Translations under genes and position numbers: made by a program
From: an uncultured Christensenellaceae bacterium
Lineage (GTDB): Bacteria > Bacillota > Clostridia > Christensenellales > UBA3700
NCBI GenBank assembly: GCA_944380295.1
Contig: CALWHE010000006.1
Location: 11,670 to 75,669, forward strand
Length of the DNA stretch: 64,000 nucleotides
Direction: 5' to 3'
Shown here: piece after piece, positions 1 through 62,517 of the stretch
Layout: each line of letters begins with the position of its first letter
Position numbering within the stretch: the first letter of the stretch is position 1
Notes under the pieces: generated by a model
The model's input: only the letters and a program-made list of their open reading frames with translations
Databases searched by the model: none
What the model was told of the DNA's origin: nothing

Positions 1-262
1 TGTTTGTTTATGATGGTAATTATGCTGGACAGATGTCTATAAGGGTGCGCGGAAGGGCGATGGATTTGCGTGCGGATTTGGACAAAGGTGCCGCAGGCAA
101 TACTTGTTGTATTGTCAAGGCGCATTTGTGCAAAGGCGTGCGTAAAGACGCGCCCTACTGCGTGCCCGCATAGCGTCTGTCCGGCAGAGAAAAATATCAC
201 GTCCTGCGCCGCCGAACATTTTTGTCGCTTTTCACTTTTGTTCGGCGGCGCAGGACATTTCT
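1..262 (+). repeat. Mosaic repeat: rod-hairpin module E (25..184) plus hairpin module H4 (201..256). The window starts inside the element.
   Basis: Nearly identical to 13060..13320 and 60745..60995. Inverted arms are ctggacagatgtctat / atagcgtctgtccgg. H4 is an 18-bp perfect stem, GTCCTGCGCCGCCGAACA / TGTTCGGCGGCGCAGGAC. Confidence 0.85.
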
Positions 263-489
263 TTCATCAGTCTTCTCTTTTCTCTTTCCAGTTCCTCGTC
301 GCTCATTTCGGCAATGCCGCCGCCCGTGAGTTCCACATAGGCTTTGAGCGCGGCAACGTCGGGTGGGTAATATTTTTGCGTGACTTTGCGGCGCAGAAGT
401 TCGTCCTGCGCGCCGTATTCCTCGCTCACTTCGCTCACGCTGCCGCCCACGGCTTTGCGATAGAGCGCGTCCAATATCTTTTCGTCCAT
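232..489 (-). CDS. Small phage-related hypothetical protein with a possible terminase-small-subunit-like motif
   Basis: 85-aa ATG ORF, 22 nt downstream of the terminase stop on the same strand. Charged helical sequence with a YYPPDV..LKAYVEL motif. Its last codons (SCAAEQK) and stop lie inside repeat module H4. Confidence 0.45.
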   Translation of the reverse strand: MDEKILDALYRKAVGGSVSEVSEEYGAQDELLRRKVTQKYYPPDVAALKAYVELTGGGIAEMSDEELEREKRRLMKEMSCAAEQK

Positions 490-511
490 GCCTTGCGCCC
501 GCTGCGGCGGG

Positions 512-1930
512 TCATCTCCTCCTCTTTTTGATCAGCCGTTCCTTGTCCAGCTCTATCTGCGTTTTTTTGCGTGCGGGGCGCGCCGCCGCTTCCGGACGCG
601 ACATCAGATAATAGCGCAGCGCGTCCAAGGCGTGATCGTCCTTTTTCACGGGCGTATCGCCCGCGCCCCACCAATAGCTTTTGAATTCGCGTATCAGGTT
701 CACGCAGGTGGAAAAAATCTTCAATCTGCCGCTTTTGAGATATGAACGCACGCGCGCTATGCCGGAAAAGAGGTCTTTGTTCACCTTGGGCGAAAGCGCC
801 AAGCCGCGCTCGAAAAACAGCTCCGTCACGCTCCGCTCCGCCGCCAGCGTGCGCTGGTTGGCGGCGCTGTCTATCAGCCCTTCCAGCCTGCCGTCATGCC
901 CGCGCCGCCAATTCAGCCTGTCTGCCAGCGCGTTTATGCCCTGCACGTGTTCGTCTATGCCCAACCCGGCGGCATACCACTCCCCCGTGACATACACGTT
1001 GCCGTCCCAGTCCACGGCAAAAAACAGACACGCCAAAGGGTTATGCAAGCCCGGATCCACGCTCAGTTTGTCCTGCCATTCGGGCGGCACGTCAAAGGGC
1101 GGGATCACGTGCACGCTCTGCTCGAATTCCGGATACACCGCCCCTTCCGCCTCGGAAAACATGCCGAAGCGGCGGCTGAGCAGGCTTTTTTCGTCCAGCG
1201 CGCTGCTGAGCGCCGCCACTTCCTCTTTGTCCAGCCAGGGATTGTCCGCCCACTGCATGTGGATGTGCCACACTTCCCCGTCCGCGGCGGAGTTGAGAAA
1301 GATCTTGTCATAAACCCACGTCAGTCCTTTGAGCGGGGTCATGGTGCCCCAGATGTCCCCCTTTTTGTCCAGCACGCGCATGCGGCATTCTTCATAGATG
1401 TCGCACGGCGGCTCCTCGTCGAACCACACCCAGTCCAAAGACGCGCCCTGGAATTTTTCTCTGCCCTGGTCGCAGCTTTTGAAGGATATGCGCGAAAGCC
1501 CGCCGAAGACGTTGCGCACCAAAAGATAATCGATCACGCCGCGCTCGGGCGAACTTTTTCTGCCCTCGCACATCACCACGTCCGCGATCCACTCCGGGCG
1601 CAGATAAGAGAGTATTTTGGCTTGCGCCACATCACGCTGCACCTCGAAGGAGAGCGAAACCACCCAGCCCTGGCTGTTCGGGCGGTTGGGACGGAACGGG
1701 TGGATCCCGCGCGCCGCCCACACCGCTTCCACCGCGCCGCACTCCGTTTTGCCGCTGCGGTTGCCGCCGAACACCCAGCGGTTGCGTTTGAGGCATTTGT
1801 GGAAAGCCATCTGCTTGGCGTGCACGCGCTCTACGTTGTATTCGCTCAATCTGCCCGGTGCGGCACGGCGTTTTTGCTCCCCCTCTATCGCCAAAATGCG
1901 CAGCAGGAGTTGTTTTTCCCTCTCGTCCAT
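512..1930 (-). CDS. terL: Phage terminase large subunit, apparently orphan
   Basis: Walker A GGNRSGKTE and Walker B-like WVWFDEE, with terminase-like N-terminal ATPase and C-terminal nuclease layout. I prefer ATG 1930, preceded by GGTGGAGGG, over the TTG at 1969 used by the ORF track. Confidence 0.85.
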   Translation of the reverse strand: MDEREKQLLLRILAIEGEQKRRAAPGRLSEYNVERVHAKQMAFHKCLKRNRWVFGGNRSGKTECGAVEAVWAARGIHPFRPNRPNSQGWVVSLSFEVQRDVAQAKILSYLRPEWIADVVMCEGRKSSPERGVIDYLLVRNVFGGLSRISFKSCDQGREKFQGASLDWVWFDEEPPCDIYEECRMRVLDKKGDIWGTMTPLKGLTWVYDKIFLNSAADGEVWHIHMQWADNPWLDKEEVAALSSALDEKSLLSRRFGMFSEAEGAVYPEFEQSVHVIPPFDVPPEWQDKLSVDPGLHNPLACLFFAVDWDGNVYVTGEWYAAGLGIDEHVQGINALADRLNWRRGHDGRLEGLIDSAANQRTLAAERSVTELFFERGLALSPKVNKDLFSGIARVRSYLKSGRLKIFSTCVNLIREFKSYWWGAGDTPVKKDDHALDALRYYLMSRPEAAARPARKKTQIELDKERLIKKRRR

Positions 1931-2039
1931 CTCTGCCCTCCACCTCCGCCTCGCCGCCGCGGCGGACAAGTTATCTCATCAAGCGGCAAAATTTTTCTTT
2001 TTTTGCTTTATTTTCCCCGCACAAGCGTGTATAATTAAA

Positions 2040-2879: not shown

Positions 2880-3478
2880 TGTCCTGCGCGGCACGGGCAG
2901 CGCGGGGCTGCACCCCTTATATACTCCGCAATAACGGGAAATCTTGACGCGGCAAACATCTTCGCAAAAACGCAAATTAGCGCAAGTGTGTTCGACGGCT
3001 CAGGACGCGATATTTTTCTCTGCCGGACAGACGCTATGCGGGCAGCGTGACGCTGCCCGCGCTTTATTGCACTTTGCCGTGTAAGTATTGCGAAAAGATC
3101 AGCCGGAAAGACGAACAAGTTACTTCAAGGCATATAATGGGTGCAGCGGCACGCTGCCCGCCACGCACGACGAGCGCGGAGCTGTATCGTCTTTCTGTCG
3201 CTCTTGCTATGTTTTATAACACTTTATTTAATGTGCCCACAGCACCGCCACGCACGACGAGCGCGGAGCTGTATCGTCGTGCATTTCACGTGCCCTCTCG
3301 TCGCTTGCGGTTTGAGGGCACATTTCACGTTTTTGCCAACTCGTTGGCAAAAACATTTCACTTTTCGGCAGAGGAAACGCGGCGCTTACGCAACCGCTAT
3401 ATCTGCCGAAAAATTTCACGTCCGAAGCGGCACGGCACCCTTTTGCTTATCGTTCATTGCCGTGCCGCGCAGGACATT
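2880..3478 (+). repeat. Mosaic intergenic repeat region: truncated E arm, P2 palindromes, F module, one heptamer-hairpin cassette
   Basis: P2 at about 3045..3062 and 3139..3160. Cassette at about 3246..3475 with ATTTCAC at about 3283, 3320, 3355 and 3412. Shares long blocks with 12460..12800 and 45520..45968. Confidence 0.85.
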
Positions 3479-3480
3479 AT

Positions 3481-3981
3481 TCACACTCTATACGCCTCAT
3501 ATTTTCTGAACGGGCACTCCTCCGCGCCTTCGGACAGCCGCTGTTTGATCAGCAACAAAAAAGGGTTTGCGCCGAACAGCTCTTTGAGCCGCGCCCCGTC
3601 ATAGCCGCGTTCCAACATGATTTTGGCAAAGGCGGAAAGCGCCGCTTCCGCGTTATAGACCACATTGCGGCGGCTGACCTTGGCAACGGCGGCGATGGTT
3701 TCATAAGTGAGCTTTTTGAAGTAACGGCAGGTCAGCATACGCCGGAATTTTTCCGCCAGTCTGCGCAAACACTCCTCCACCGCCACCTTGGCGTTGATAT
3801 AGCTCTCCTTCACTTCCACCAGGTCTTGAATGCGGCGGCACATGTCCTCCGCCGTGCGCAGACTGCGCCAGCTGCCCAGCGCCTCGTCCATCAAGCGCCT
3901 GTCCGCCTGAAACGCCGCCTCATGCAAATGCGGATACGCCGTCAAAAGCGTTTTTGCCCATAACTTCACCTCTCTTTCCAT
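3481..3981 (-). CDS. Sigma-70 region-4-like HTH protein, possibly a phage late-gene activator (RinA/ArpU-like class)
   Basis: The C-terminal segment RRMLTCRYFKKLTYETIAAVAKVSRRNVVYNAEAAL resembles sigma region 4. AAGGAG RBS lies upstream of ATG 3981. Same strand as terL and upstream of it. Confidence 0.5.
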   Translation of the reverse strand: MEREVKLWAKTLLTAYPHLHEAAFQADRRLMDEALGSWRSLRTAEDMCRRIQDLVEVKESYINAKVAVEECLRRLAEKFRRMLTCRYFKKLTYETIAAVAKVSRRNVVYNAEAALSAFAKIMLERGYDGARLKELFGANPFLLLIKQRLSEGAEECPFRKYEAYRV

Positions 3982-4059
3982 CTCTTCTCCTTTGCCGCAC
4001 GGCGGCTTTATCGGTTTGGTTTTTTTGCTATATGTTCAAAGCGCCTGCCGGCGCATTCC

Positions 4060-4540
4060 CCTTGCGGCTTTTGCCCTGCCGCGACCGGCATGCGGATAAG
4101 CGCTCCCCGGCGCAAGTCTTGTCTTACTTGCGGCAGAACGGTTTGCCACCCACGCGCTCCCCCTGCGGCTTTTGCCCTGCCGCGACCGGCATGCGGATAA
4201 GCGCTCCCCGGTGCAAGTCCGCTTATTTGCGGCAGGACGGCTTGCCACCCGCGCGCGCCCCCTGCGGCTTTTGCCCTGCCGCGACCGGCATGCGGATAAG
4301 CGCTCCCCGGCGCAAGTCTTGTCTTACTTGCGGCAGGACGGCTTGCCACCCGTGCGCCCCCTGCGGCTTTTGCCTGATGTCACCGGCATGCGGATAAGCG
4401 CTCCCCGGCGCAAGTCTTGTCTTACTTGCGGCAGGACGGCTTGCCACCCGTGCGCCCCCTGCGGCTTTTGCCCTGCCGCGACCGGCATGCGGATAAGCGC
4501 TCCCTGGTGCAAGTCTTGTCTTACTTGCAGCGTTCGGGCA
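4060..4540. repeat. Tandem array, about 98 bp x 5
   Basis: Unit ccctgcggcttttgccctgccgcgaccggcatgcggataagcgctccccggcgcaagtcttgtcttacttgcggcaggacggcttgccaccc... starts at about 4060, 4162, 4260, 4358 and 4456. Internal hairpin CGCAAGT n8 ACTTGCG. Confidence 0.9.
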
Positions 4541-4757
4541 TAAAAAGCTCCGCGCCGCCATCTGCCGGCGCCGCGCGCTTGCGTTTTGCATGAAACTCTT
4601 TTGAACTCCGCGGGATCCGCCGCGCAAACAGACCTCTCGGCGGGCTTTAAGTCCCCGCCGCGGCGGCGCTTCAAACCGCCGTTTGCGCCCTTCCTTTTTC
4701 CACACTTCCATTGTATCATACAAAACTCCGGTTTTCAAGATTAGAGTGCAAAAAATT

Positions 4758-8035: not shown

Positions 8036-8160
8036 ATCAGCGGCTGGGGGTGCCTCCGAGGAGGCTGAGAGAGTCCCTTTGAACTTGGTCAAGGTAATTC
8101 TTGCGAAAGGAAGCAAAATCGGAAATGTTTTCTTAAAGTTCCTTCAGCCGAAGGAGTTTT
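8036..8160 (+). ncRNA. TPP (THI-box) riboswitch with expression platform
   Basis: ctgggggtgcc..ggCTGAGAgagtccctttGAACttGgtCaaggTAATtcttGCGaaAGGAAgc matches the THI-box core. Downstream hairpin TCCTTC agcc GAAGGA plus T7 sequesters the GGAG RBS just before ATG 8164 of a thiamine transporter. Confidence 0.85.
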
Positions 8161-9542: not shown

Positions 9543-9640
9543 GCAATGTTTTTCCGCAAATTCGCCGCACTTTTTTAGCGATTTTCGGCGATTTTTCTTT
9601 TACGGAAAATGCTTTGTATATGTTTATTATTTTGATTTTT

Positions 9641-9770
9641 CGGCAAGTTGGCGGGATTTTGTTCGGCAAGTTGGCGGGATTTTGTTCGGCAAGTTGGCGG
9701 GATTTCGTTCGGCAAGTTGGCGTGATTTCGTTCGGCAAGTTGGCGGGATTTCGTTCGGCAAGTCGGCAAA
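9641..9770. repeat. 23-bp tandem repeat, five full copies plus a partial sixth
   Basis: CGGCAAGTTGGCGGGATTT(T/C)GTT at 9641, 9664, 9687, 9710 and 9733, with a partial copy at 9756. Confidence 0.9.
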
Positions 9771-9875
9771 GGCGCGCTTTGTTTTGGCGGCGGCGCGCGG
9801 CGGGCGAAAAATTCGCGCGGGCAAAGCGTTGCCGTTTATTTGTGTTTTTTTCTTTTGCGTGTTATAATCGTTAGT

Positions 9876-17549: not shown

Positions 17550-18645
17550 AACAGGGTGCAGCGTCACGCTGCCCGCCGCGCTTTTATAGTGCTTTATTAA
17601 GTATTGCGAAGAGATACGCTTACTACCACTTCCCGCCTCTGCGAAGCATATCAGAGTGCAGCGTCACGCTGCCCGCGCTTTTATTGCACTTTATCAAGTA
17701 TTGCAGGGAATAACGCTTACTACCACTTCCCGCCTCTGCGAAGCATATCAGGGTGCAGCGGCACGCTGCCCGCACCTTCCCGGCACGGCGATAAGCGCCG
17801 TTTCTATCTGTATATTATCGGACAAGCGGCTTTGACAATGTCCGGGAACAGGGCGAAAAAACGCCGTGCTGCGAAAGTGCAAAGAGTGGCACCTCGGAGT
17901 AAAGCATAGTTTTTGCGCAGCATAACAAGGGGTGGAGCGCCCCGCGCTCCGGGTGCAGCGTTATACTCGAATAGCGCCGCAGGTAGCCATCACGCACGAC
18001 GAGCGCGGAGCTGTATCGTCGTGCATTTCACGTGCCCTCTCGTCGCTTGCGGTTTGAGGGCACATTTCACGTTTTTGCCAACTCGTTGGCAAAAACATTT
18101 CACTTTTGCGCAGCAGTATATGTTCGCTTATCGCTCACTTATATCTGCGCAAAAATTTCACGTCCGCAGCCGCCGAACATAGCTTTCGCTTATTGATTTT
18201 GTTCGGCGGCGCAGGACATAAAGGGGTGGAGCGCCCAGCGCTCCTCTACTTATATTATAACACGGAAAACCGCGGTTTTTGAGATGAGAGTGCAAAATTT
18301 TTTTTGCAAAACCACAAAAAACCTTCCCCATAGGCGGCAATTTTGCCTCGCGCGACGCGCGTTATATCTTTTTTCTTTTTCTTGTTTTTTCTCTTTTTCT
18401 TCGACTTTTGCTTTATCTTTCTCTTCTTTGAAGAAAAAGAAAAGGGGGGTTTGGGGGGAAAGGAAAAGGAGCGTGACGGGAGCGCGGGGCGGCAGCGTGA
18501 CGGGAGCGCGGGGCGCTCCACCCCCTGTTATGCTTCGCAGAGATAAACCATGATCGCGGAGCGTTTCTCTTCACAAAACCAATATTTGTTTGCGGCAGAA
18601 TGCCGATAAGCGCGGCTCTTCCCACAAGCGGCATATGCGGTTCGG
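17550..18645 (+). repeat. Mosaic intergenic repeat region
   Basis: P2 palindrome plus about 75 nt repeated with a 97-100 nt period at 17552, 17652 and 17749. Cassette at 17929..18217 with four ATTTCAC. P1 boxes at about 17929, 18222 and 18500. Pyrimidine/purine tract at 18365..18475. Confidence 0.9.
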
Positions 18646-26647: not shown

Positions 26648-26793
26648 GATGTCAAAACATTTATATTCCAATCGGAACTTGTGTCATAACTTACACTACT
26701 TCCGATTGAAAAATAGTATATCAAAGATAAAAGACGATGTCAAGATATTTATTCCGTTCGGAACTTGTGTCAAAACTTACACTACTTCCGAGC
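26648..26793 (-). repeat. Two copies of a 58-60 bp unit, each an imperfect hairpin plus TTGACA
   Basis: 26648..26707 and 26736..26793. Hairpin TCGGAAGTAGTGT n8 ACACAAGTTCCGA as read on the minus strand. The second copy covers the stop codon of the acyl-CoA ligase gene. Confidence 0.8.
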
Positions 26794-28392
26794 GGAACTC
26801 TCTTCTTTGAGTTTGCCCACGTCCACTTTGCCCACGGCGGTGCGAGGCAGTTTGTCCACAAAAATTATCTCGCGCGGACGGGCGTAAACTATCAATTTTT
26901 GCTCGCACGCCGCCCTGATCGCCTCTTCCGCCCGCTGTCTGTCCGCGCCCTTTTCCAAGGCGCAGTAAAGGCGCATATATTCTCTGTCGCCGCGGCTGAC
27001 CTTGACGGCGTAACTTTCCGCCACCGCGCTCACGTCGCCGGCAACTTCGCATATCTCCTGAGGATAGACCACCACGCCGCTCACCTTTTCCGCGGCTTTG
27101 ATGCGGTCGTAAAAGTAAACTCTGCCCTGCTCGTCCACTCTGCCGCTGTCGCCCGTTTTCAGCCATTTTTCCCCGCCGATGTTCATAAACACCCGATCGT
27201 TGTCCCCGTCGCGATAGCCCTGCATCAGCGTGGGCGCGCACACGACCAGCTCTCCTTCCTGCCCCGGCGGCAGCAGTTTTTCCCCGTCTGTGCAGGCGAT
27301 CTTAATGCCGTGCAGCGGCTTGCCCATGCAGCCTTTGATATACTCGCCCGGCTCGTTCACGCAGCACACCGTCACGCACTCCGTCTGCCCGTAACCTTCC
27401 AGCAGGCAGGCGGAAGAACCCGCCTTTTTCAGCGCCACGTCAAATTGGTTTTTCAGAGAAGAAGTCAGCTTGTCCCCGCCGCAAAAGATGTGTTTCACCC
27501 CTTTCATGGCGGCAAAAGCCTCGCCCCCGCCCAACATCTTTTTATACATCAGCGGCACGCCGGCAATAATGGTCACGCCGCGCTTTTTGATGACGGAGAG
27601 CACCTCTTTGGTGGAATATTTGGGGATCATCACGCTCTCTATGCCGCGCGAGAGCATGGAGTGCATGCACACCCCCAGCCCGAAGCCGTGAAAGATGGGC
27701 AGCACCATCAGGGATACGTCCCGGTTGCCGTCGTAATCGGCAATGACGTATGTGAGGCACTCGGTCAGCTCGTTGAACGCCTTGTGCGAAAGTTTGATGG
27801 TCTTGGGCTTGCCCGTGGTGCCGCCCGAGTGCATGAAAACGGCGGTGTCTTCACCTTTTCCCACCGGTGCGCCCGTGTGTTCGGGGAACTTTTTCATGAT
27901 CGCGCGCCAAGGCGTGGCGCCCGTCACGCGCGGCTCGCTCGTGCGGCGGTAAATGCCTGCGACAAGCGGCGGCAGATGGTCGGAAGCAGAAGCCGTCACC
28001 ACCGGACAGCCCGGCTGTAACTGCGCCTTGTTCTGCGCAAAGTAACCGTCAAAGGTGAGCAAAAGTTTGCTGCCCGCGTCCGCGGTCATCTCCGAAAGCG
28101 GCAGCGGCGGCATGAGCGGATGGATAAGATTGGCTATCGCGCCCAGTTTGTTCACGGCATAAAACGCCGCCGTGGCGGCGGGCAGATTGGGCAGATGAAT
28201 GGTCACCACGTCCCCCCTGCCAATGCCCAAAGAGAGCAGGAACGAGCAAAATTTGTTGCACTCGCGCCGCACGCGCGCCTTGCTTATCCTGCTGCCCTTG
28301 AAATATATCACCGTTTTGTCGTCAGAAAAGTCGGAAAGACCATCCGCAACATATTCATACATCGTCCGATCGGTATCGATAGCTCTGCCCAT
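26782..28392 (-). CDS. AMP-dependent synthetase/ligase (acyl-CoA synthetase family)
   Basis: AMP-binding signature MHSGGTTGKPK, plus GYGQTE and TGD..R.DE.G motifs. Start trimmed to ATG 28392 because the upstream 84 codons of the listed ORF run through repeat modules. Confidence 0.85.
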   Translation of the reverse strand: MGRAIDTDRTMYEYVADGLSDFSDDKTVIYFKGSRISKARVRRECNKFCSFLLSLGIGRGDVVTIHLPNLPAATAAFYAVNKLGAIANLIHPLMPPLPLSEMTADAGSKLLLTFDGYFAQNKAQLQPGCPVVTASASDHLPPLVAGIYRRTSEPRVTGATPWRAIMKKFPEHTGAPVGKGEDTAVFMHSGGTTGKPKTIKLSHKAFNELTECLTYVIADYDGNRDVSLMVLPIFHGFGLGVCMHSMLSRGIESVMIPKYSTKEVLSVIKKRGVTIIAGVPLMYKKMLGGGEAFAAMKGVKHIFCGGDKLTSSLKNQFDVALKKAGSSACLLEGYGQTECVTVCCVNEPGEYIKGCMGKPLHGIKIACTDGEKLLPPGQEGELVVCAPTLMQGYRDGDNDRVFMNIGGEKWLKTGDSGRVDEQGRVYFYDRIKAAEKVSGVVVYPQEICEVAGDVSAVAESYAVKVSRGDREYMRLYCALEKGADRQRAEEAIRAACEQKLIVYARPREIIFVDKLPRTAVGKVDVGKLKEESSARK

Positions 28393-28439
28393 AAATTCCC
28401 TGCGCCGCCCTGCGCGGCAAAAAACACTTAATATGGTTA

Positions 28440-29482
28440 TGATAACATAAGCGCGCGTGTATGTCAAGAAAGCAGAATTATGTCCTGCACAAGGGCGCAA
28501 TGAGCGATAAGCGAAGAAATGCGCCCTTGCTCCGGACGTGAAATTTTTGCGCAGATATAAGTGAGCGGTAAGCGAACATAACTTCCGCGCAAAAGTGAAA
28601 TGTTTTTGCCAACTCGTTGTCAAAAACGTGAAATGTGCCCTCAAACCGCAGAGCGACGAGAGAGCACGTGAAATGTTTGCTCATACTGCCGCAAAGCGGC
28701 GCATCGCAAACGTGGCGGCTGCCTGCGGCGCTATTAGAGTATAATGCTGCACCCGGAGCGCGGGGCGGTCCACCCCTTTATGTCCTGCGCCGCCAAACAA
28801 GAGTGAAAAGCGACAAAAATGTTTGGCGGCTCCGGACGTGAAATTTTTGCGCAGATATAAATAAGCGGTAAGCGAACGTATAATGCTGCGCAAAAGTGAA
28901 ATGTTTTTGCCTCGCAAGGCAAAAACGTGAAATGTGCCCTCAAACCGCAAGCGACGAGAGGGCACGTGAAATGTTTGCTCATACTGCCGCAAAGCGGCGC
29001 ATCGCAAACGTGGCGGCTGCCTGCGGCACTATTAGAATATAATGCTGCACCGGAGCGCGGGGCGCTCCACCCCTTACACGCCTTGACGTCACTTTTCTGT
29101 ATTTTCAGCCAATCGCTTTGCAATACCTACCCAATTAAGTGTAATAAAGCGCGGCAAAATCACATTTTTGCCAAGCGTCACCTCAAAAATGCGCCGTGCG
29201 CATTTTCCGAATGAGCGGAGCACGCGAAGCGAATGAGGGCGGAAAGAGTGAATTTTTGCGGCACGACCAAGCGCGCCACGAGATTACGCCGCCCGCAAAA
29301 AGAGAGAAAACCGCGGCTCAAGCAATCGAATCCGCGGCAAAGTGGCGGAGGCAGCGCGGTGCTGAACTCTAAATAAAATTATATTGGAATGATAATGTCG
29401 ATTGCGAATGCCGGGGTTGTCTTTCGGGAAGCGAAAAATGAAAGGGCAGTTTCCGTTGTAAACGAAAACCGCCCTATCCCTT
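28440..29482 (-). repeat. Mosaic repeat region: two head-to-tail heptamer-hairpin cassettes plus module L
   Basis: Cassettes at 28478..28776 and 28778..29073. L at about 29075..29482, ending in the terminator hairpin next to the aminotransferase stop. Confidence 0.92.
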
Positions 29483-45097: not shown

Positions 45098-45109
45098 AGT
45101 ATATTCTCC

Positions 45110-45968
45110 TTAAATATTATTTACGAATTTTGCGGATACTCCGCCGCGAATATTATATCATCAACCGGGCAAAAAAGTAAACAAAATAAACGTGGTTTCT
45201 GCCCCTGCCGCAAAGCGGCGTATCGCAAACGTGACGGGCAGCGTGCCGCTGCACCCGGAGCGCGGGGCGCTCCGCCCCTTACACGCCTTGACGTTGCTTT
45301 TCCGTTTGTTCTGCTAATCTCTTCGCAATACTTCCATATCAAAGTGTAATAAAGCGCGGCAAAATCGGCAATGTTACGCTGTCTTGCGCGCCGGCTGTTT
45401 TGGACGGCGGGAAGTCACACTTTTAAGACTATGCGATGCAAAGAGATGAAGTAAGTAATGTAAATGAAGTTACTTCAAGGCGTATAAGAGTGCAGCATGT
45501 TTCTGTCGCTCTTGCCACGCTCTATTACACTTTATTAAGAGCGAGTATTGCAAAAAGATCAGACGGAAAGACGAACAAGTTACTTCAAGGCTTGATCAGG
45601 GGTGGAGCGCCCCGCGCTCCGGGTGCAGCGTCACGCTGCCGCCCCGCGCTCCCCGCCACGCACGACGAGCGCGGAGCTGTATCGTTTTTCTGTCGCTCTT
45701 GCTATGTTTTATCGCATTTTATTTAATGTGCCCACAGCACCGCCACGCACGACGAGCGCGGAGCTGTATCGTCGTGCATTTCACGTGCCCTCTCGTCGCT
45801 TTGCGGTTTGAGGGCACATTTCACGTTTTTGCCTTGCAAGGCAAAAACATTTCACTTTTGCGCGGAAGTTATGCTCGCTTTCCGCTCACATATATCCGCG
45901 CAAAAATTTCACGTCCGGAGCCGCCAAACATTTTTGTCGCTTTTCACTCTTCTTTGGCGGCGCAGGAC
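45110..45968 (+). repeat. Mosaic repeat region between pckG and clpC; its last hairpin overlaps the clpC 3' end
   Basis: P1/P2 boxes at about 45228..45275 and 45599..45660. F module at about 45500..45600. Cassette at about 45640..45968 with four ATTTCAC. Confidence 0.9.
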
Positions 45969-48487
45969 ACCTTAAATCCCCCGTCTTTGACGGTGAGTTC
46001 GACGCTGTCGCCCTCTTTGATCTCGCCGGCGAGCAGCTTTTCCGAGAGCATGTCTTCCACATTGCGCTGGACGGCGCGGCGCAGAGGTCTGGCGCCGTAT
46101 TCCTTGTTATAGCCCTTTTCTATCAGCAGATCGCACGCCGCCTCGTCAAAGGTGAAGGTGATGTTGCGCTCTTTGAGGCGCTTTGCAACATCGTTCAGCA
46201 TCTTGGTGCAGATGGTGCGCATATCCGCCTTTTCCAGGCTGCGGAAGATGATGATATCGTCTATGCGGTTGATGAATTCGGGCTTGAAAGCGTCTTTGAG
46301 CGCCTGCATCTGCCTGTCTCTCACGTTTTCGTAATCCTGCTCTGCGGAGCCGAAGCCCAGGCGGGAATTTTTTATCTCCCCCGCGCCAATGTTGGAGGTC
46401 ATGATGATGATGGTGTTTTTGAAGTTGACCTCCCTGCCGTGCGAGTCTTTGAGGTGACCGTCGTCCAGCACCTGCAAAAGCACGTTGAACACGTCCGGGT
46501 GCGCCTTTTCTATCTCGTCGAACAAGATGACGGAATAAGGATGGCGGCGCACTTTTTCCGTGAGCTGACCGCCCTCGTCGTAACCCACGTAGCCGGGCGC
46601 GGAACCGATGAGTTTGGACACGTTGAACTTTTCCATATATTCGGACATATCCACGCGTATCATCAGGTTTTCGTCGCCGAACATTGCCTCCGCCAGGGCT
46701 TTGGAAAGCTCCGTCTTGCCCACGCCGGTGGGACCCAGGAAGATGAACGAACCTATCGGGCGGCGGCGGTCCTGCACGCCGGCGCGGGCGCGGCGCACCG
46801 CTCTTGCCACGGCGGACACCGCCTCGTCCTGTCCGATCACGCGCTTGCGCAGCTCCTCTTCCAGGTGCAGAAGTTTGGACGATTCGCTCTCCGTCAGCTT
46901 GGCGACGGGAATGGACGTGGTGAGCGACACCACTTCCGCAATGTCCTTATCGTCGATGGCAAGCTCCGTCTGCGCCTTGTCGCTGCCCCACTTTTTCTTG
47001 CCTTCCGCAATTTGGGCGTTCAGCTTCTTGATCTTGTCGTCTATCTCCGCGCACTTGGCGTATTCGCGCCTGTCCACGTGGTTTTTCAGCTCTATGTTCA
47101 GCTTGTTCACCTCTTCTTCCATGTCCTTGATGGGCTGAGGCAGCACAAAGTTGGACACCTTCTTTTTCGCCATCGCCTCGTCTATGAGGTCGATCGCCTT
47201 ATCGGGCAAAAATCTGTCCGATATATACCTGTCTGAGAGCACGGCGGCGGCTTCTATGGCGGAGTCGGATATCTTCACGTTGTGGAACTTTTCGTATTTG
47301 GAGCGCAAACCTTTGAGAATGGTCTGCGTTTCCTCCACCGTGGGCGGCTCCACCATGATGGGCTGCAACCTGCGCTCCAAAGCGGCGTCTTTTTCTATAT
47401 ATTTGGTATACTCGGCGATGGTGGTGGCGCCTATTGTCTGCAACTCTCCGCGCGCCAAAAGCGGCTTTAAGATGTTTGCCATATCCAAAGAACTGTCACC
47501 GGAAGCGCCCGCACCCACGATGAGGTGAATTTCGTCGATGAAGAGAATGATGTTGGAGTCCGATTTGATGAAATCGAGCAGTTTTTTCATCCTCTCTTCA
47601 AACTCGCCGCGGTATTTGGTGCCCGCCATCAGCCCCGCCACGTCCAGGGAAAAGATGGTCTTGCCACGCAGTGTTTCCGGCACTTCGCCCGCCACGATGG
47701 CTTGCGCCAATCCTTCCACAATGGCGCTCTTGCCCACGCCCGGCTCGCCGATGAGCACGGGATTGTTTTTGGTGCGGCGGGAGAGCACTTCTATTATCCT
47801 GTCTATCTCCTTGCTCCTGCCGATGACGGGGTCCAGCTTGCCCTCGCGCGCCTTTTGCGTGATGTCCGTGCCCAGCTTTTCCATCTCCTTGGAGATGCCG
47901 CCCTTGCGCGGCTTTTCCGCCTCGCGTTCGCCGCCGCGCGCTCTCGGACGGGGATCATCGCCCACCAAGCGCCGCTCGAACATGCGGCGCATCTCATCGA
48001 ACGGATCGAGCTCCTCTTCGTCGTCTTCGTCTTCGTCCTCGCCAAAGTTCATATTGCCGGGCGAATCGATGTTGAGCACGAGCCGCCTTGCCTTGTCGCG
48101 CAGCTCGTTCACGTCCACGCCCAAAGCCATCAGCTTTTGCACGGCGTAAGAATCGCGCATGTTAAGCACGCCGAACAGCAAAAGCGCGGAATTTATCTCG
48201 CCGCCCTCCGTGTTGTTTGCCGCCGCGGCGCACCAGTCCAGCACCTTGCGCGTGCGGTCGGACAGCCGCACTTTGTCGAGCGGCGTTTCTCTGTCTGCAT
48301 TGACAAAATCGGGCACGTTGCCCTGCGAGAGCGAATATTCCTGCAAAAGCGGACGCGCAAAACAGTCCACGCCCAGCATGGCGGCAAGGAAAAACTCCGT
48401 GCCCAGCAGACCCGCGCTCGTGTGTGCGGCAAGTTTACCTGCCGCCGTTACCACTCTGTTACACTCTTCCGTAAAATTATAATCCAT
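45944..48487 (-). CDS. clpC: ATP-dependent Clp protease ATP-binding subunit ClpC
   Basis: Clp N-domain repeats, two AAA modules ([16 protein letters not shown]), a UVR-like middle domain. Start trimmed to ATG 48487 (MDYNFTEE) after GGAGGAAG. Downstream of mcsB. Confidence 0.95.
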
Positions 48488-50514: not shown

Positions 50515-51000
50515 CCGCCCTTGCGCCGCCTTTTTGTCCGCCTTGCGCTTTGCCCCGCCTGGCTTTTGCCCTAGCTTTGCTTTCCGTTCCGCTTGGCTCT
50601 TGCTCTGCGCTCCGGCTTGGCTTTCGCTCTTGCGTTACGCTCATGCTTGGCTTTTGCCCTGCGTTGCGTTCTGCCCGGCTCTTGCCCTGCGTTGTATTCC
50701 GCTCCGCTTTGGCTTTTGCTCTTGCGTTCCGTTCGGCTCTTGCTTTGCTTTGCGTTCCGCTTGGTCTTTGCCTCGCGTTGCGTTCCGCCCGGCTCTTGCC
50801 CTGCGTTGTATTCCGCTCCGCTTTGGCTTTTGCTCTTGCGTTCCGTTCGGCTCTTGCTTTGCGTTCCGCTTGGTCTTTGCCTCGCGTTGCGCTCCGCCCG
50901 GCTCTTGCTCTGCGTTTCCGCCCCGCTCTTACCTTACATTGCGTTCCGCTTGGTCTTTTCGGTCGTCCGACAGCTCCCTTTGCCTTGTCGCGTTTTTTCG
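50515..51000. repeat. About 490 nt of degenerate tandem repeats between the CtsR-box promoter and ctsR
   Basis: About 110-nt unit seen twice nearly intact at about 50660..50770 and 50771..50880. Shorter gcgttccgcttgg(c/t)ctt.gc-type subrepeats occur throughout. T/C-rich on plus, purine-rich on the transcribed strand. Confidence 0.85.
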
Positions 51001-60179: not shown

Positions 60180-60995
60180 CATATGCGGAAGGGGAAAAGG
60201 TTATGTCCTGCGGCAGCGTGACGCTGCACCCTTTATGTCCTGCGCAAGGGCGCAATGAGCGATAAGCGAAAGTATGCGCCCTTGCTCCGGACGTGAAATT
60301 TTTGCGCGGACAGCGTGCCGCTGCACCCCGATATACTCCGTAGCTGCAAAAAAGCAACCACTCAACACAACACTTCGCACATATATGATATTGCGATAAG
60401 CGAACATAACTTCCGCGCAAAAGCGATATGTCGGCTGCGCCGACGCGATATGTCCTGCGCCGCCAAACAAAAGCGAAAAGCGATAAAAATGTTTGGCGGC
60501 TTCGGACGCGATATATTTTGCCGTAACAAACGTATTGAGTAACCGCACTGTATCGAACTGCAAAATGTAAAGGCTGCCTGCGGCGCTGTTTGAAATTGCA
60601 AAGGCAGCGTGGCGCTGCACCCCTTATGCGCTTCGCAGCAATGTAAAATACCGATAAGCGTTACTCTTCGCAACAACAATATGTGATTTGCGGCAAAATG
60701 CCGCAAGATACCGCCGCATTTTGCCGTTTGGCACATCTTATGTGTTTGTTTATGATGGTAATTATGCTGGACAGATGTCTATAAGGGTGCGCGGAAGGGC
60801 GATGGATTTGCGTGCGGATTTGGACAAAGGTGCCGCAGGCAATACTTGTTGTATTGTCAAGGCGCATTTGTGCAAAGGCGTGCGTAAAGACGCGCCCTGC
60901 TGCGTGCCCGCATAGCGTCTGTCCGGCAGAGAAAAATATCGCGTCCAGAGCAAGGGCGCACAAGTTCGCTTATCGCTCATTGCGCCCTTGCGCAG
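60180..60995. repeat. Mosaic repeat region between dnaB and yqfC, with mixed orientations
   Basis: P2 at about 60210, 60310 and 60600. Minus-oriented H4 and H3 modules with GCGATAT-type heptamers at 60222..60530. Plus-oriented E (60767..60926) and H4 (about 60940..60992) ending 10 nt before the dnaB stop. Confidence 0.9.
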
Positions 60996-61002
60996 GACAC
61001 TC

Positions 61003-62517
61003 TCACTCTTCCACCGGCGGCAGTTCGTCCATCACGTCCGGCAGGTTATCCTGTTCCGGGGGCACGTCCTCGTCGCTGTAAGTGACGGTATAGCTCTCTT
61101 CCGCGGCGACTTCCTGCTTTTTGGCGACCGTGGCGAAAGAGGAGCCGGGGTTATTGGTTTCCGTGAACTTCATCTTGTCGCCGTTAAAGATGAAGTTGAG
61201 CGTGCCGGTGGGACCGTTGCGGTGTTTTGCCACGATCAGCTGCACGTTTTTGACCGCCGTATCCACGTTATCCTTGGGACGGTGGATAAACATGACCACG
61301 TCCGCGTCCTGCTCTATCGCGCCCGATTCGCGCAGGTCGGAGAGCTTGGGCTCCACCGTCACGGCGGAGTCTTTATTGTCCTGTTCGCGCTTTTCCACGT
61401 CACGCGACATCTGCGAAAGCAGGATGACGGGCACGCCCAGCTCTTTGGCGATGACCTTCATGCCGCGGGAGATATCCGCCACTTCCTGTTGGCGGGAAGC
61501 ATTGCGCTTTTTGTCCTTCACGGTCATCAGCTGCAAGTAGTCCACCACCACCAGGTCCAGCCCGCCCATCTTCTTTTTCAGGGTGCGGCACTTGTGCAAA
61601 ATATCCTCGTGCGAGAGGTTGACCGTATCGTCCAGATAGAGATTGGAAGGCGCGAGATAATTGGACACGCTCCACATGCGCGTCCAATCGGCGCCGTCTT
61701 CCTGACCCTTGACGATCGTTTGCATGCCCACGTCGCTCATGTTGACCAGAATGCGCTGGGCAAGTTCCGTGGCGGACATTTCCAGGTTGAACACCGCCAC
61801 CACCTTTTTCTTGTCGTTTTTGAGGACGTTGCTCACCACGTTGAGCGCAAACGCCGTTTTACCAAGACCCGGTCTGGCGGCGACGATGATTATCTGACCG
61901 GGCAAAAAGCCGTTGAGCAGATTGTCCAGGTTGTTGAAGCCGGAGCGCAAGCCCTCCGCCCCTTTTTTGTGCGAAAACACGTCGTTGAGCCTGACCATGA
62001 GCTGCGCCATGGGCACGCTCACGTGTTGCAGATCGCCCTCCGCCGTCTGCGTGCCCAAATCGAAAAACTGCGCCTCGGCAAAGGCGCGCACGCTGTCCAC
62101 GTTATCGTCGCTGTAAGCGCGCTCCACAATGGCGTTGGCGCGGCGTATCATGGTGCGCAGCATGCCGTCGCGCTTGACGATGGAGAAATAATATTGCGCG
62201 TTGGCGGTGGAAGCGATGCTGTCCGTCAGCGCCTCGATGGCGCCGGCGCCGCCCACCGCGTCCAGCTCTCCCTTGCGGTTAAGCCTGCTCATCACGGCGA
62301 TGGCGTCCACGGAAGCGCCGCTCTCGCGGGCGAGTTCCGTTATCACTTTGAAGATCTTTTTATGCGCCACGGCATAAAAATCGTCCTCGCTCAGACCGGG
62401 GAGAAACTCCGAACACTTTTCGTTATCCAGCAGCATGGCGGCAAGCACCGCCTGTTCCGCCTCGTAACTGTTGGGCATCACGCGCAGGCTTACCCCTTCC
62501 GTTTTTTTCTCAGGCAT
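61003..62517 (-). CDS. dnaB: Replicative DNA helicase (DnaB family) with an acidic C-terminal tail of about 50 aa
   Basis: N-terminal DnaB domain and RecA-like core with Walker A ARPGLGKT. GGAGG RBS. Confidence 0.96.
   Translation of the reverse strand: MPEKKTEGVSLRVMPNSYEAEQAVLAAMLLDNEKCSEFLPGLSEDDFYAVAHKKIFKVITELARESGASVDAIAVMSRLNRKGELDAVGGAGAIEALTDSIASTANAQYYFSIVKRDGMLRTMIRRANAIVERAYSDDNVDSVRAFAEAQFFDLGTQTAEGDLQHVSVPMAQLMVRLNDVFSHKKGAEGLRSGFNNLDNLLNGFLPGQIIIVAARPGLGKTAFALNVVSNVLKNDKKKVVAVFNLEMSATELAQRILVNMSDVGMQTIVKGQEDGADWTRMWSVSNYLAPSNLYLDDTVNLSHEDILHKCRTLKKKMGGLDLVVVDYLQLMTVKDKKRNASRQQEVADISRGMKVIAKELGVPVILLSQMSRDVEKREQDNKDSAVTVEPKLSDLRESGAIEQDADVVMFIHRPKDNVDTAVKNVQLIVAKHRNGPTGTLNFIFNGDKMKFTETNNPGSSFATVAKKQEVAAEESYTVTYSDEDVPPEQDNLPDVMDELPPVEE

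Follow-up and report, generated by a model that had tools for sequence, protein, structure and literature searches.

Why do clpC and a small phage-related ORF end with the same few amino acids? A preliminary description of the DNA analysed here, a stretch of 64,000 nucleotides (the window, G000:C6:11670-75669, i.e., part of contig C6 of the present genome), had noted that both genes run into copies of a hairpin repeat (H4), and proposed that the element had inserted into, or recombined with, their 3' ends and supplied new terminal codons and the stop. The source genome is a metagenome assembly of 1.75 Mb in 27 contigs with 54% GC, and its nearest public relatives are uncultured Christensenellaceae/Clostridia assemblies.

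Both tails are indeed encoded by the repeat, codon by codon. The clpC gene (45944..48487, minus strand) codes for 847 aa from an ATG at 48487, with the Pfam domains listed for members of the ClpC cluster. Its 3' end reads ...GGA TTT AAG GTG TCC TGC GCC GCC AAA GAA GAG TGA on the minus strand, of which everything from the third base of the Val codon through the last seven codons (SCAAKEE) to the stop belongs to an H4 hairpin of stem class GCCGCCAAA (45913..45968, minus strand) with the arms GTCCTGCGCCGCCAAA and TTTGGCGGCTCCGGAC and a 9-bp upper stem. This is the first hairpin of an array; it holds the clpC TGA (45944-45946) in its loop and is followed on the clpC strand by a GTGAAAT linker (45906..45912, minus strand; ATTTCAC on the plus strand) and by three further GTGAAAT-linked hairpins (45773..45876, minus strand), the spacer of 846 bp between clpC and pckA (45098..45943) being a mosaic of repeat modules. 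The second gene, an 85-aa ORF (232..489, minus strand), ends ...AAA GAA ATG TCC TGC GCC GCC GAA CAA AAG TGA, its last eight codons (MSCAAEQK) plus TGA being read from another H4 copy (201..256, minus strand; perfect 20-bp stem, RNA fold -44 kcal/mol, z -9.6) through the same arm and in the same frame. In both genes the stop is the TCA within the loop word TTTTCAC, as first described. On one side the ORF is flanked by the gene for a terminase large subunit (512-1969; PHROG 2, E 6e-32) and on the other by one for a portal, and it weakly matches a terminase small subunit itself (E 8e-5), which agrees with its description as phage-related. The whole packaging module (window 232-1969 plus G000:C6:5870-11142, shortly ahead of the window) comprises the terminase large subunit, the small-terminase-like ORF, the portal and a small ORF, with repeat arrays of 0.4-1 kb separating each gene from the next; hairpins contain the ends of three of these genes, and yet the genes are intact across 19-29 cluster members.

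The larger hairpin family to which H4 belongs has four stem classes, H4 being one of them, and a structural scan found approximately 78 copies of 55-56 nt genome-wide. The family is defined by a constant base (GTCC..GGAC), an upper stem covarying between classes and a loop with stop codons. On the gene-end strand the module is AT-GTCCTGCGC-(upper stem)-(loop)-(complement)-GCTCCGGAC-GTGAAAT, laid out on the clpC strand as AT-GTCC-TGC-GC-(upper stem)-(loop)-(complement)-GC-TCC-GGAC-GTGAAAT(TTTT). Approximate copy numbers of the upper-stem classes are 31 for CGCCGAAC / CGCCAAAC (H4), 28 for GGCACGGC, 19 for AAGGGCGC and 6 for GGCGGCGG. Among 65 distinct hairpin copies, stem positions 0-3 are invariant, 59 retain the mismatches at positions 4 and 6, and positions 9-15 use two to three Watson-Crick pair types each while being paired in 61-65 of the copies. 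The H4 arm pattern matches 14 times in the window against 3.3 expected, a number reached by none of 100 shuffles, and nhmmer recovered 30 strong H4 copies in the 1.75-Mb genome. Further copies in the window include one without contact to a gene end, where other modules precede (18162..18217, minus strand), one within a repeat array (60452..60507, plus strand), and one nearly identical to the clpC copy (28782..28837, plus strand), the loop-stem edge of which reads CAAGAG instead of GAAGAG, so that its tail would end in AAKQE.

To see how many genes end in this way, we surveyed the genome with a home-made codon-usage caller (1308 genes, 83% of the genome), which extended the two cases first described to 12 genes ending within a family hairpin, all in the frame ATG TCC TGC and with loop stops at +21, +24 or +27. 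Besides clpC and the ORF 232..489 these are SpoIIE (tail MSCAARQ), an M16 peptidase (SCAARQWR), an Amidase_3 protein (MSCAARQNL), an FMN reductase (MSCVARQSQ, after a second translated module), a P22-like portal (MSSAAEQNQ), a DUF1256 protein (MSCARAQ), a GNAT protein on contig C3 and a GNAT-like protein on C13 that was named without a Pfam scan (both MSCAAEQNQ), and two small ORFs (C6:5870-6253 and C9:9146-9553, both MSCAARQ). Pfam matches were obtained for eight of ten scanned tail genes (M16 peptidase, GNAT, SpoIIE, Amidase_3, FMN_red, P22-like portal, DUF1256), and none for the 85-aa ORF and the two small ORFs on C6 and C9. A thirteenth candidate (C8:40128-43505, 1125 aa), reading through a hairpin in another frame, was discarded as a shadow ORF by its composition. 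Twelve more genes stop 2-9 nt before a hairpin, including argS, recF, dnaB and a ROK kinase (named by sequence); in the window, a hairpin of class GGCACGGC (3420..3475, minus strand) begins 5 nt past the stop of a 166-aa gene (3481-3981). For dnaB (61003-62517, minus strand), which is named from its helicase-like sequence, the preliminary description had reported a nearby H4 copy; a family hairpin does begin 4 nt past the stop (60943..60998, minus strand), but it belongs to class AAGGGCGC and not to H4. The same description had an ORF, which it called an acyl-CoA ligase gene, ending in a different repeat, and the TAG of this ORF (26782..28644, 620 aa, minus strand) is found inside the arm TCGGAAGTAGTGT. 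Around this stop (window 26648-26793), a hairpin unit of ~60 bp is locally duplicated, and one copy holds the TAG.

Comparison with other species shows where the tail came from. None of the ~35 ClpC orthologues from the genus, family, order and public collections ends in SCAA, and the SCAAKEE end is likewise missing from the repeat-free relatives among them, indicating that the tail is element-derived. In seven congeners, the residues after KDGxF are EIVKES, VTQKV, DMVKADKKEQ, IMEKA, IMEKASK or LTFTKK/LIFTKK, and ordinary hairpin-plus-T terminators lie downstream of their clpC genes; H4 DNA is confined to the present species among the eight genomes of the genus. The native end of ClpC has been replaced by element sequence of about the same length rather than extended. 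The tail is also absent from the congeners' SpoIIE, M16 peptidase, amidase and FMN reductase, e.g., SpoIIE ends ...AVKIFSEE and similar in congeners versus ...AIKIMSCAARQ here, and the amidase ...AECIFKCVLR and similar versus ...AECIAMSCAARQNL. Across these five compared genes, ClpC included, the native last 4-20 residues are replaced, the FMN reductase having lost ~20 native C-terminal residues. At the FMN reductase gene, we searched beyond the array for the native 3' end that would have been displaced and did not find it, which argues either against a simple insertion or for decay of the remnant. The tail of this gene (G000:C3:86940-87464) spans two repeat modules (LQPERGAFHSIMSCVARQSQ). Thus, of the original proposal, the origin of the terminal codons and stop in the element is borne out for ClpC and four further genes, and 'recombined with' fits the present state better than 'inserted into'. 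The reverse direction, in which the SCAA tail would be native to ClpC, or captured from a gene, and the repeat family would have arisen from a gene 3' end, could draw on the VS(C/R)AA found at the ClpC end of all conspecific strains. However, no orthologue outside the species carries the tail, the same bases recur in ~78 mostly non-coding copies, and four other genes show an equal replacement relative to congeners, which makes such an origin extremely improbable.

Differences between strains of the species show that the junction and the hairpin behind it have separate histories. The ClpC cluster at 90% identity contains four ends, with the tails SCAAKEE, SCAAAE (...FEVSCAAAE) and SRAAE (...FDVSRAAE, the majority). 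In SCAAAE strains the junction GTG|TCCTGCGC is identical and the hairpin that follows is of class GGCGGCGG, and SRAAE strains, i.e., most of the conspecific strains, keep only the 5' arm of the H4 hairpin and have a clpC-pckA spacer of 349 bp with different content, versus 846 bp here. In all seven of the other gene clusters examined, tails likewise switch between classes at one junction: amidase tails are MSCAARQNL, MSCARAQ and MSCAAEQNQ, and portal tails MSSAAEQNQ, MSCATEQNQ, MSSARAQ and MSCAARQSQ. The junction ATGTCCTGCGC (GTGTCC in clpC) is constant in nearly all strain variants, and the core changes among four classes. Aligning the amidase locus of the present genome with that of one other strain, we found the gene plus ATGTCCTGCGC identical over 51 columns, the hairpin core at about 50% identity over 37 columns and the downstream array at 97% identity over 208 columns. 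The incoming core is one base off H4 copies elsewhere in the present genome, indicating replacement from a paralogous copy and not gradual divergence. In SpoIIE of other strains, ATGTCCTGCGC is kept and a different module follows, giving the tail MSCAA. For the FMN reductase there is one strain variant in which the junction differs and frame c is read (...EKKEDLCCPAPPNK); in other strains the junction of this gene keeps ...HVEKKEDL and the hairpin is then read in another frame (CPAPPNK). The hairpin core is exchanged at a fixed gene-hairpin junction. The junction is older than the sampled strains, and the core beyond it is still being exchanged.

Given a 27-contig metagenome assembly with abundant repeats, one might suspect that assemblers had joined gene ends to collapsed repeats. 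Yet the exact ClpC protein is recorded on five contigs, the variant junctions were seen in several independent samples and on contigs of up to 118 kb that continue into pckA, and the amidase and SpoIIE junctions recur across samples in the same way, leaving an artefact of this kind with a practically negligible probability.

The single reading frame of the tails calls for a separate explanation. Frame a (ATG TCC) reaches a stop within nine codons in 67 of the 78 copies (86%), and does so in every stem class, compared to 34 of 78 for frame c (TGT CCT) and two of 78 for frame b (GTC CTG). In the present genome, all 12 tail genes use frame a and none frame c (0/12), which is far from 1:1:1; under tolerance of short tails alone, the chance of this outcome is 0.65^12 ~ 0.006 as a rough estimate, and the use of a single frame is not fully accounted for by tail length. 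Fusions in other frames would give tails of at least 19 residues, or tails that become long once the core is exchanged, and would be removed by selection. A junction would then survive only if every arriving class gives a short tail, which only frame a does, so that the restriction to this frame may be a consequence of core exchange itself.

The frame excess beyond the tail-length prediction also speaks for a different idea, namely that the tail serves as a C-terminal tag, e.g., as a Cys-containing signal for degradation, sorting or modification, and was spread by selection with the hairpin as its vehicle. Twelve proteins share an (M)SC(A/V)A C-terminus in one frame, and the first residues, M-S-C/S, persist across strains. 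Nevertheless, we hold a tag to be very improbable: the proteins are unrelated in where they reside and what they do (ClpC in the cytoplasm, SpoIIE in the membrane, a phage portal, a cell-wall amidase), the tail after SC varies freely within the species (AARQ, ARAQ, AAEQNQ, AAKEE, AAAE), ClpC ends in SRAAE, without the Cys, in most strains, congeners do without the tail, and its constant part coincides with the constant base of the hairpin.

The family hairpin is the outermost module of mosaic hairpin arrays, 0.35-1.5 kb long, that occupy intergenic gaps, with a gene close by on the ATGTCC side; on the GTGAAAT side, repeats extend for at least 350 nt until the next gene is reached. The array boundary on the gene side is sharp (ATGTCC), and array length and content vary between loci and strains. 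We looked for terminal inverted repeats, a target-site duplication and a mobilising enzyme for the arrays and found none, and no second boundary could be defined. The module GCAGCGTGACGCTGCACCC, common in the arrays of the present genome, also occurs just past the amidase gene of L152 (G003:C31), a congener without H4, suggesting that some modules are older than the species. Hairpins linked by GTGAAAT are the hallmark of the Gut-1 RNA (Rfam RF01706, function unknown), and here the linker follows H4 and each next hairpin. At clpC, the three hairpins after H4 align to the whole Gut-1 model in cmscan with 28 bits (E 0.0044), below the gathering score of 50, and an Rfam scan of the window at the gathering threshold gave no Gut-1 match anywhere, so that H4 is best described as the first hairpin of sub-threshold Gut-1-like arrays. 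Unlike in Gut-1, the arrays are longer and shuffled, and the first hairpin overlaps coding sequence; a limited literature search on Gut-1 RNA yielded no description of an overlap with gene ends. The only Rfam match at the gathering threshold in the window is a TPP riboswitch (RF00059, 62.9 bits; 8036-8128). Other repeats in the window are ~7 tandem copies of a 23-bp unit (TTCGGCAAGTTGGCGGGATTTTG) at 9616-9790, iteron-like in look, and tandem repeats at 4048-4558 (period ~99 bp) and 50565-50996 (~28/81-86 bp).

As 24 of the 78 hairpins contain the stop of a co-directional gene or lie within 9 nt of it, always as the array module that faces the gene, the hairpin might instead be a regulatory device at the stop codon, coupling termination with mRNA 3'-end stability or transcription attenuation, with the tails as its price. 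The stems are stable, and in E. coli, REPs within 15 nt of the stop have been reported to stall ribosomes (PMC12306157), a precedent that holds for distances of up to 15 nt. Against this, 34 hairpins face a gene start and others sit within arrays, the clpC hairpin lacks its 3' arm in most strains and the SpoIIE hairpin is wholly lost in other strains, both with no sign of harm, and the hairpin is not a canonical intrinsic terminator, 6 nt separating the stem from the T-run. An intrinsic (rho-independent) terminator had been considered and was rejected: GTGAAA comes between the stem and T5, and the loop has at least 20 nt. From this analysis, a primarily regulatory role seems rather unlikely.

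Taken together, these data favour, with a probability of roughly 85%, the reading that the shared tail results from translation of repeat DNA, the native ends having been displaced, the cores swapped and the tails tolerated. The arrays lie so close to genes that in 12 of these the hairpin has taken the place of the native last 4-20 codons and the stop, and translation would run as (M)-S-C-A-... through the 5' arm to end at a TGA or TAA in the loop. Other copies would then donate new cores by gene conversion or template switching, for which the constant base and the downstream array could provide the homology, and the tails would be tolerated by-products and not a functional tag. A stable hairpin at or containing the stop may in addition weaken translation termination or shield the 3' end of the mRNA, as E. 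coli REPs do. The gene-side homology beside a swapped core amounts to only ~11 nt, short for ordinary RecA-dependent conversion, and is a weakness of the proposal of gene conversion or template switching. We also considered, as a distinctly unlikely but far-reaching variant, that core exchange is active: an enzyme recognising the mismatched GTCC..GGAC base would rewrite the surroundings of stop codons, tune termination or mRNA fate and diversify C-termini, and, if true, the C-termini of proteins, essential ones included, would be diversified within a species.

Repeats that overlap gene 3' ends are already known. In Coxiella burnetii, QMITE1/QMITE2 overlap the 3' ends of ubiB, pntAA, mutT, nagZ, ruvB, recN and enhC by 1-50 bp, the genes being functional and the repeat supplying terminal residues or the stop, and strains differ in whether the QMITE in enhC is read (PMC5896051). 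The hairpins described here are similar to QMITEs in that dispersed hairpin-forming repeats reach gene 3' ends and provide residues or a stop, yet they show no terminal inverted or direct repeats, form the edge module of mosaic arrays, account for 12 fusions in one frame, and exchange their core among discrete classes at a fixed junction. Among MITE features, one that recurs here, in 12 genes, is an overlap with the CDS 3' end through which the repeat contributes residues or the stop; it is a known effect of such elements and not a defining one. The nearest architectural analogue is the REP/BIME system of Enterobacteria and Pseudomonas, likewise high-copy, imperfect palindromes that are extragenic, form mosaic clusters and often follow stops. 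In contrast to these, the hairpins have no GTAG-type head, measure 56 nt, possess a large loop and reach into coding sequence. A cognate RAYT was sought and not found, all PF01797 matches being three IS200-like copies with no H4-type hairpin near them. A Y1 transposase/RAYT as the mobilising enzyme was discarded, since only these IS200-like copies exist, at least one of them broken, and their hairpins are unrelated. The three Y1 transposase genes (G000:C5:40935-41252, C5:24818-25130 and C11:8468-8785, one with internal stops) all end at one point, ...GYYVDTV, followed by ACA(C/T)A(T/A)TTTTATGGACAC and then by AT-rich, apparently foreign DNA. Rickettsia palindromic elements, reportedly described by Ogata and co-workers in 2000, are said to be inserted in frame inside genes, adding an internal peptide; as with those elements, repeat DNA is translated within otherwise conserved proteins, whereas the hairpins described here take the place of the C-terminus and bring the stop with them. 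To integron attC sites there is a resemblance only (constant base, variable centre, gene 3' ends), the hairpins following dispersed housekeeping genes. New in comparison with these systems are the single shared frame, the involvement of many genes of a small genome, conserved housekeeping genes among them, and the core exchange that gives rise to allelic C-termini.

In conclusion, essential conserved proteins such as ClpC and SpoIIE can owe their C-terminal residues to selfish or structural repeat DNA and differ in them from strain to strain, which has consequences for annotation, for the alignment of orthologues and for the clustering of proteins in metagenome-assembled genomes. For Gut-1-like arrays, which have no known function, the first hairpin lies on stop codons, making an effect on termination and mRNA ends testable. 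Swapped cores at fixed junctions represent a natural allelic series, in which the same gene and the same array are combined with different hairpins, and which can be used to measure the effects of the hairpin and to study the recombination of hairpin repeats.
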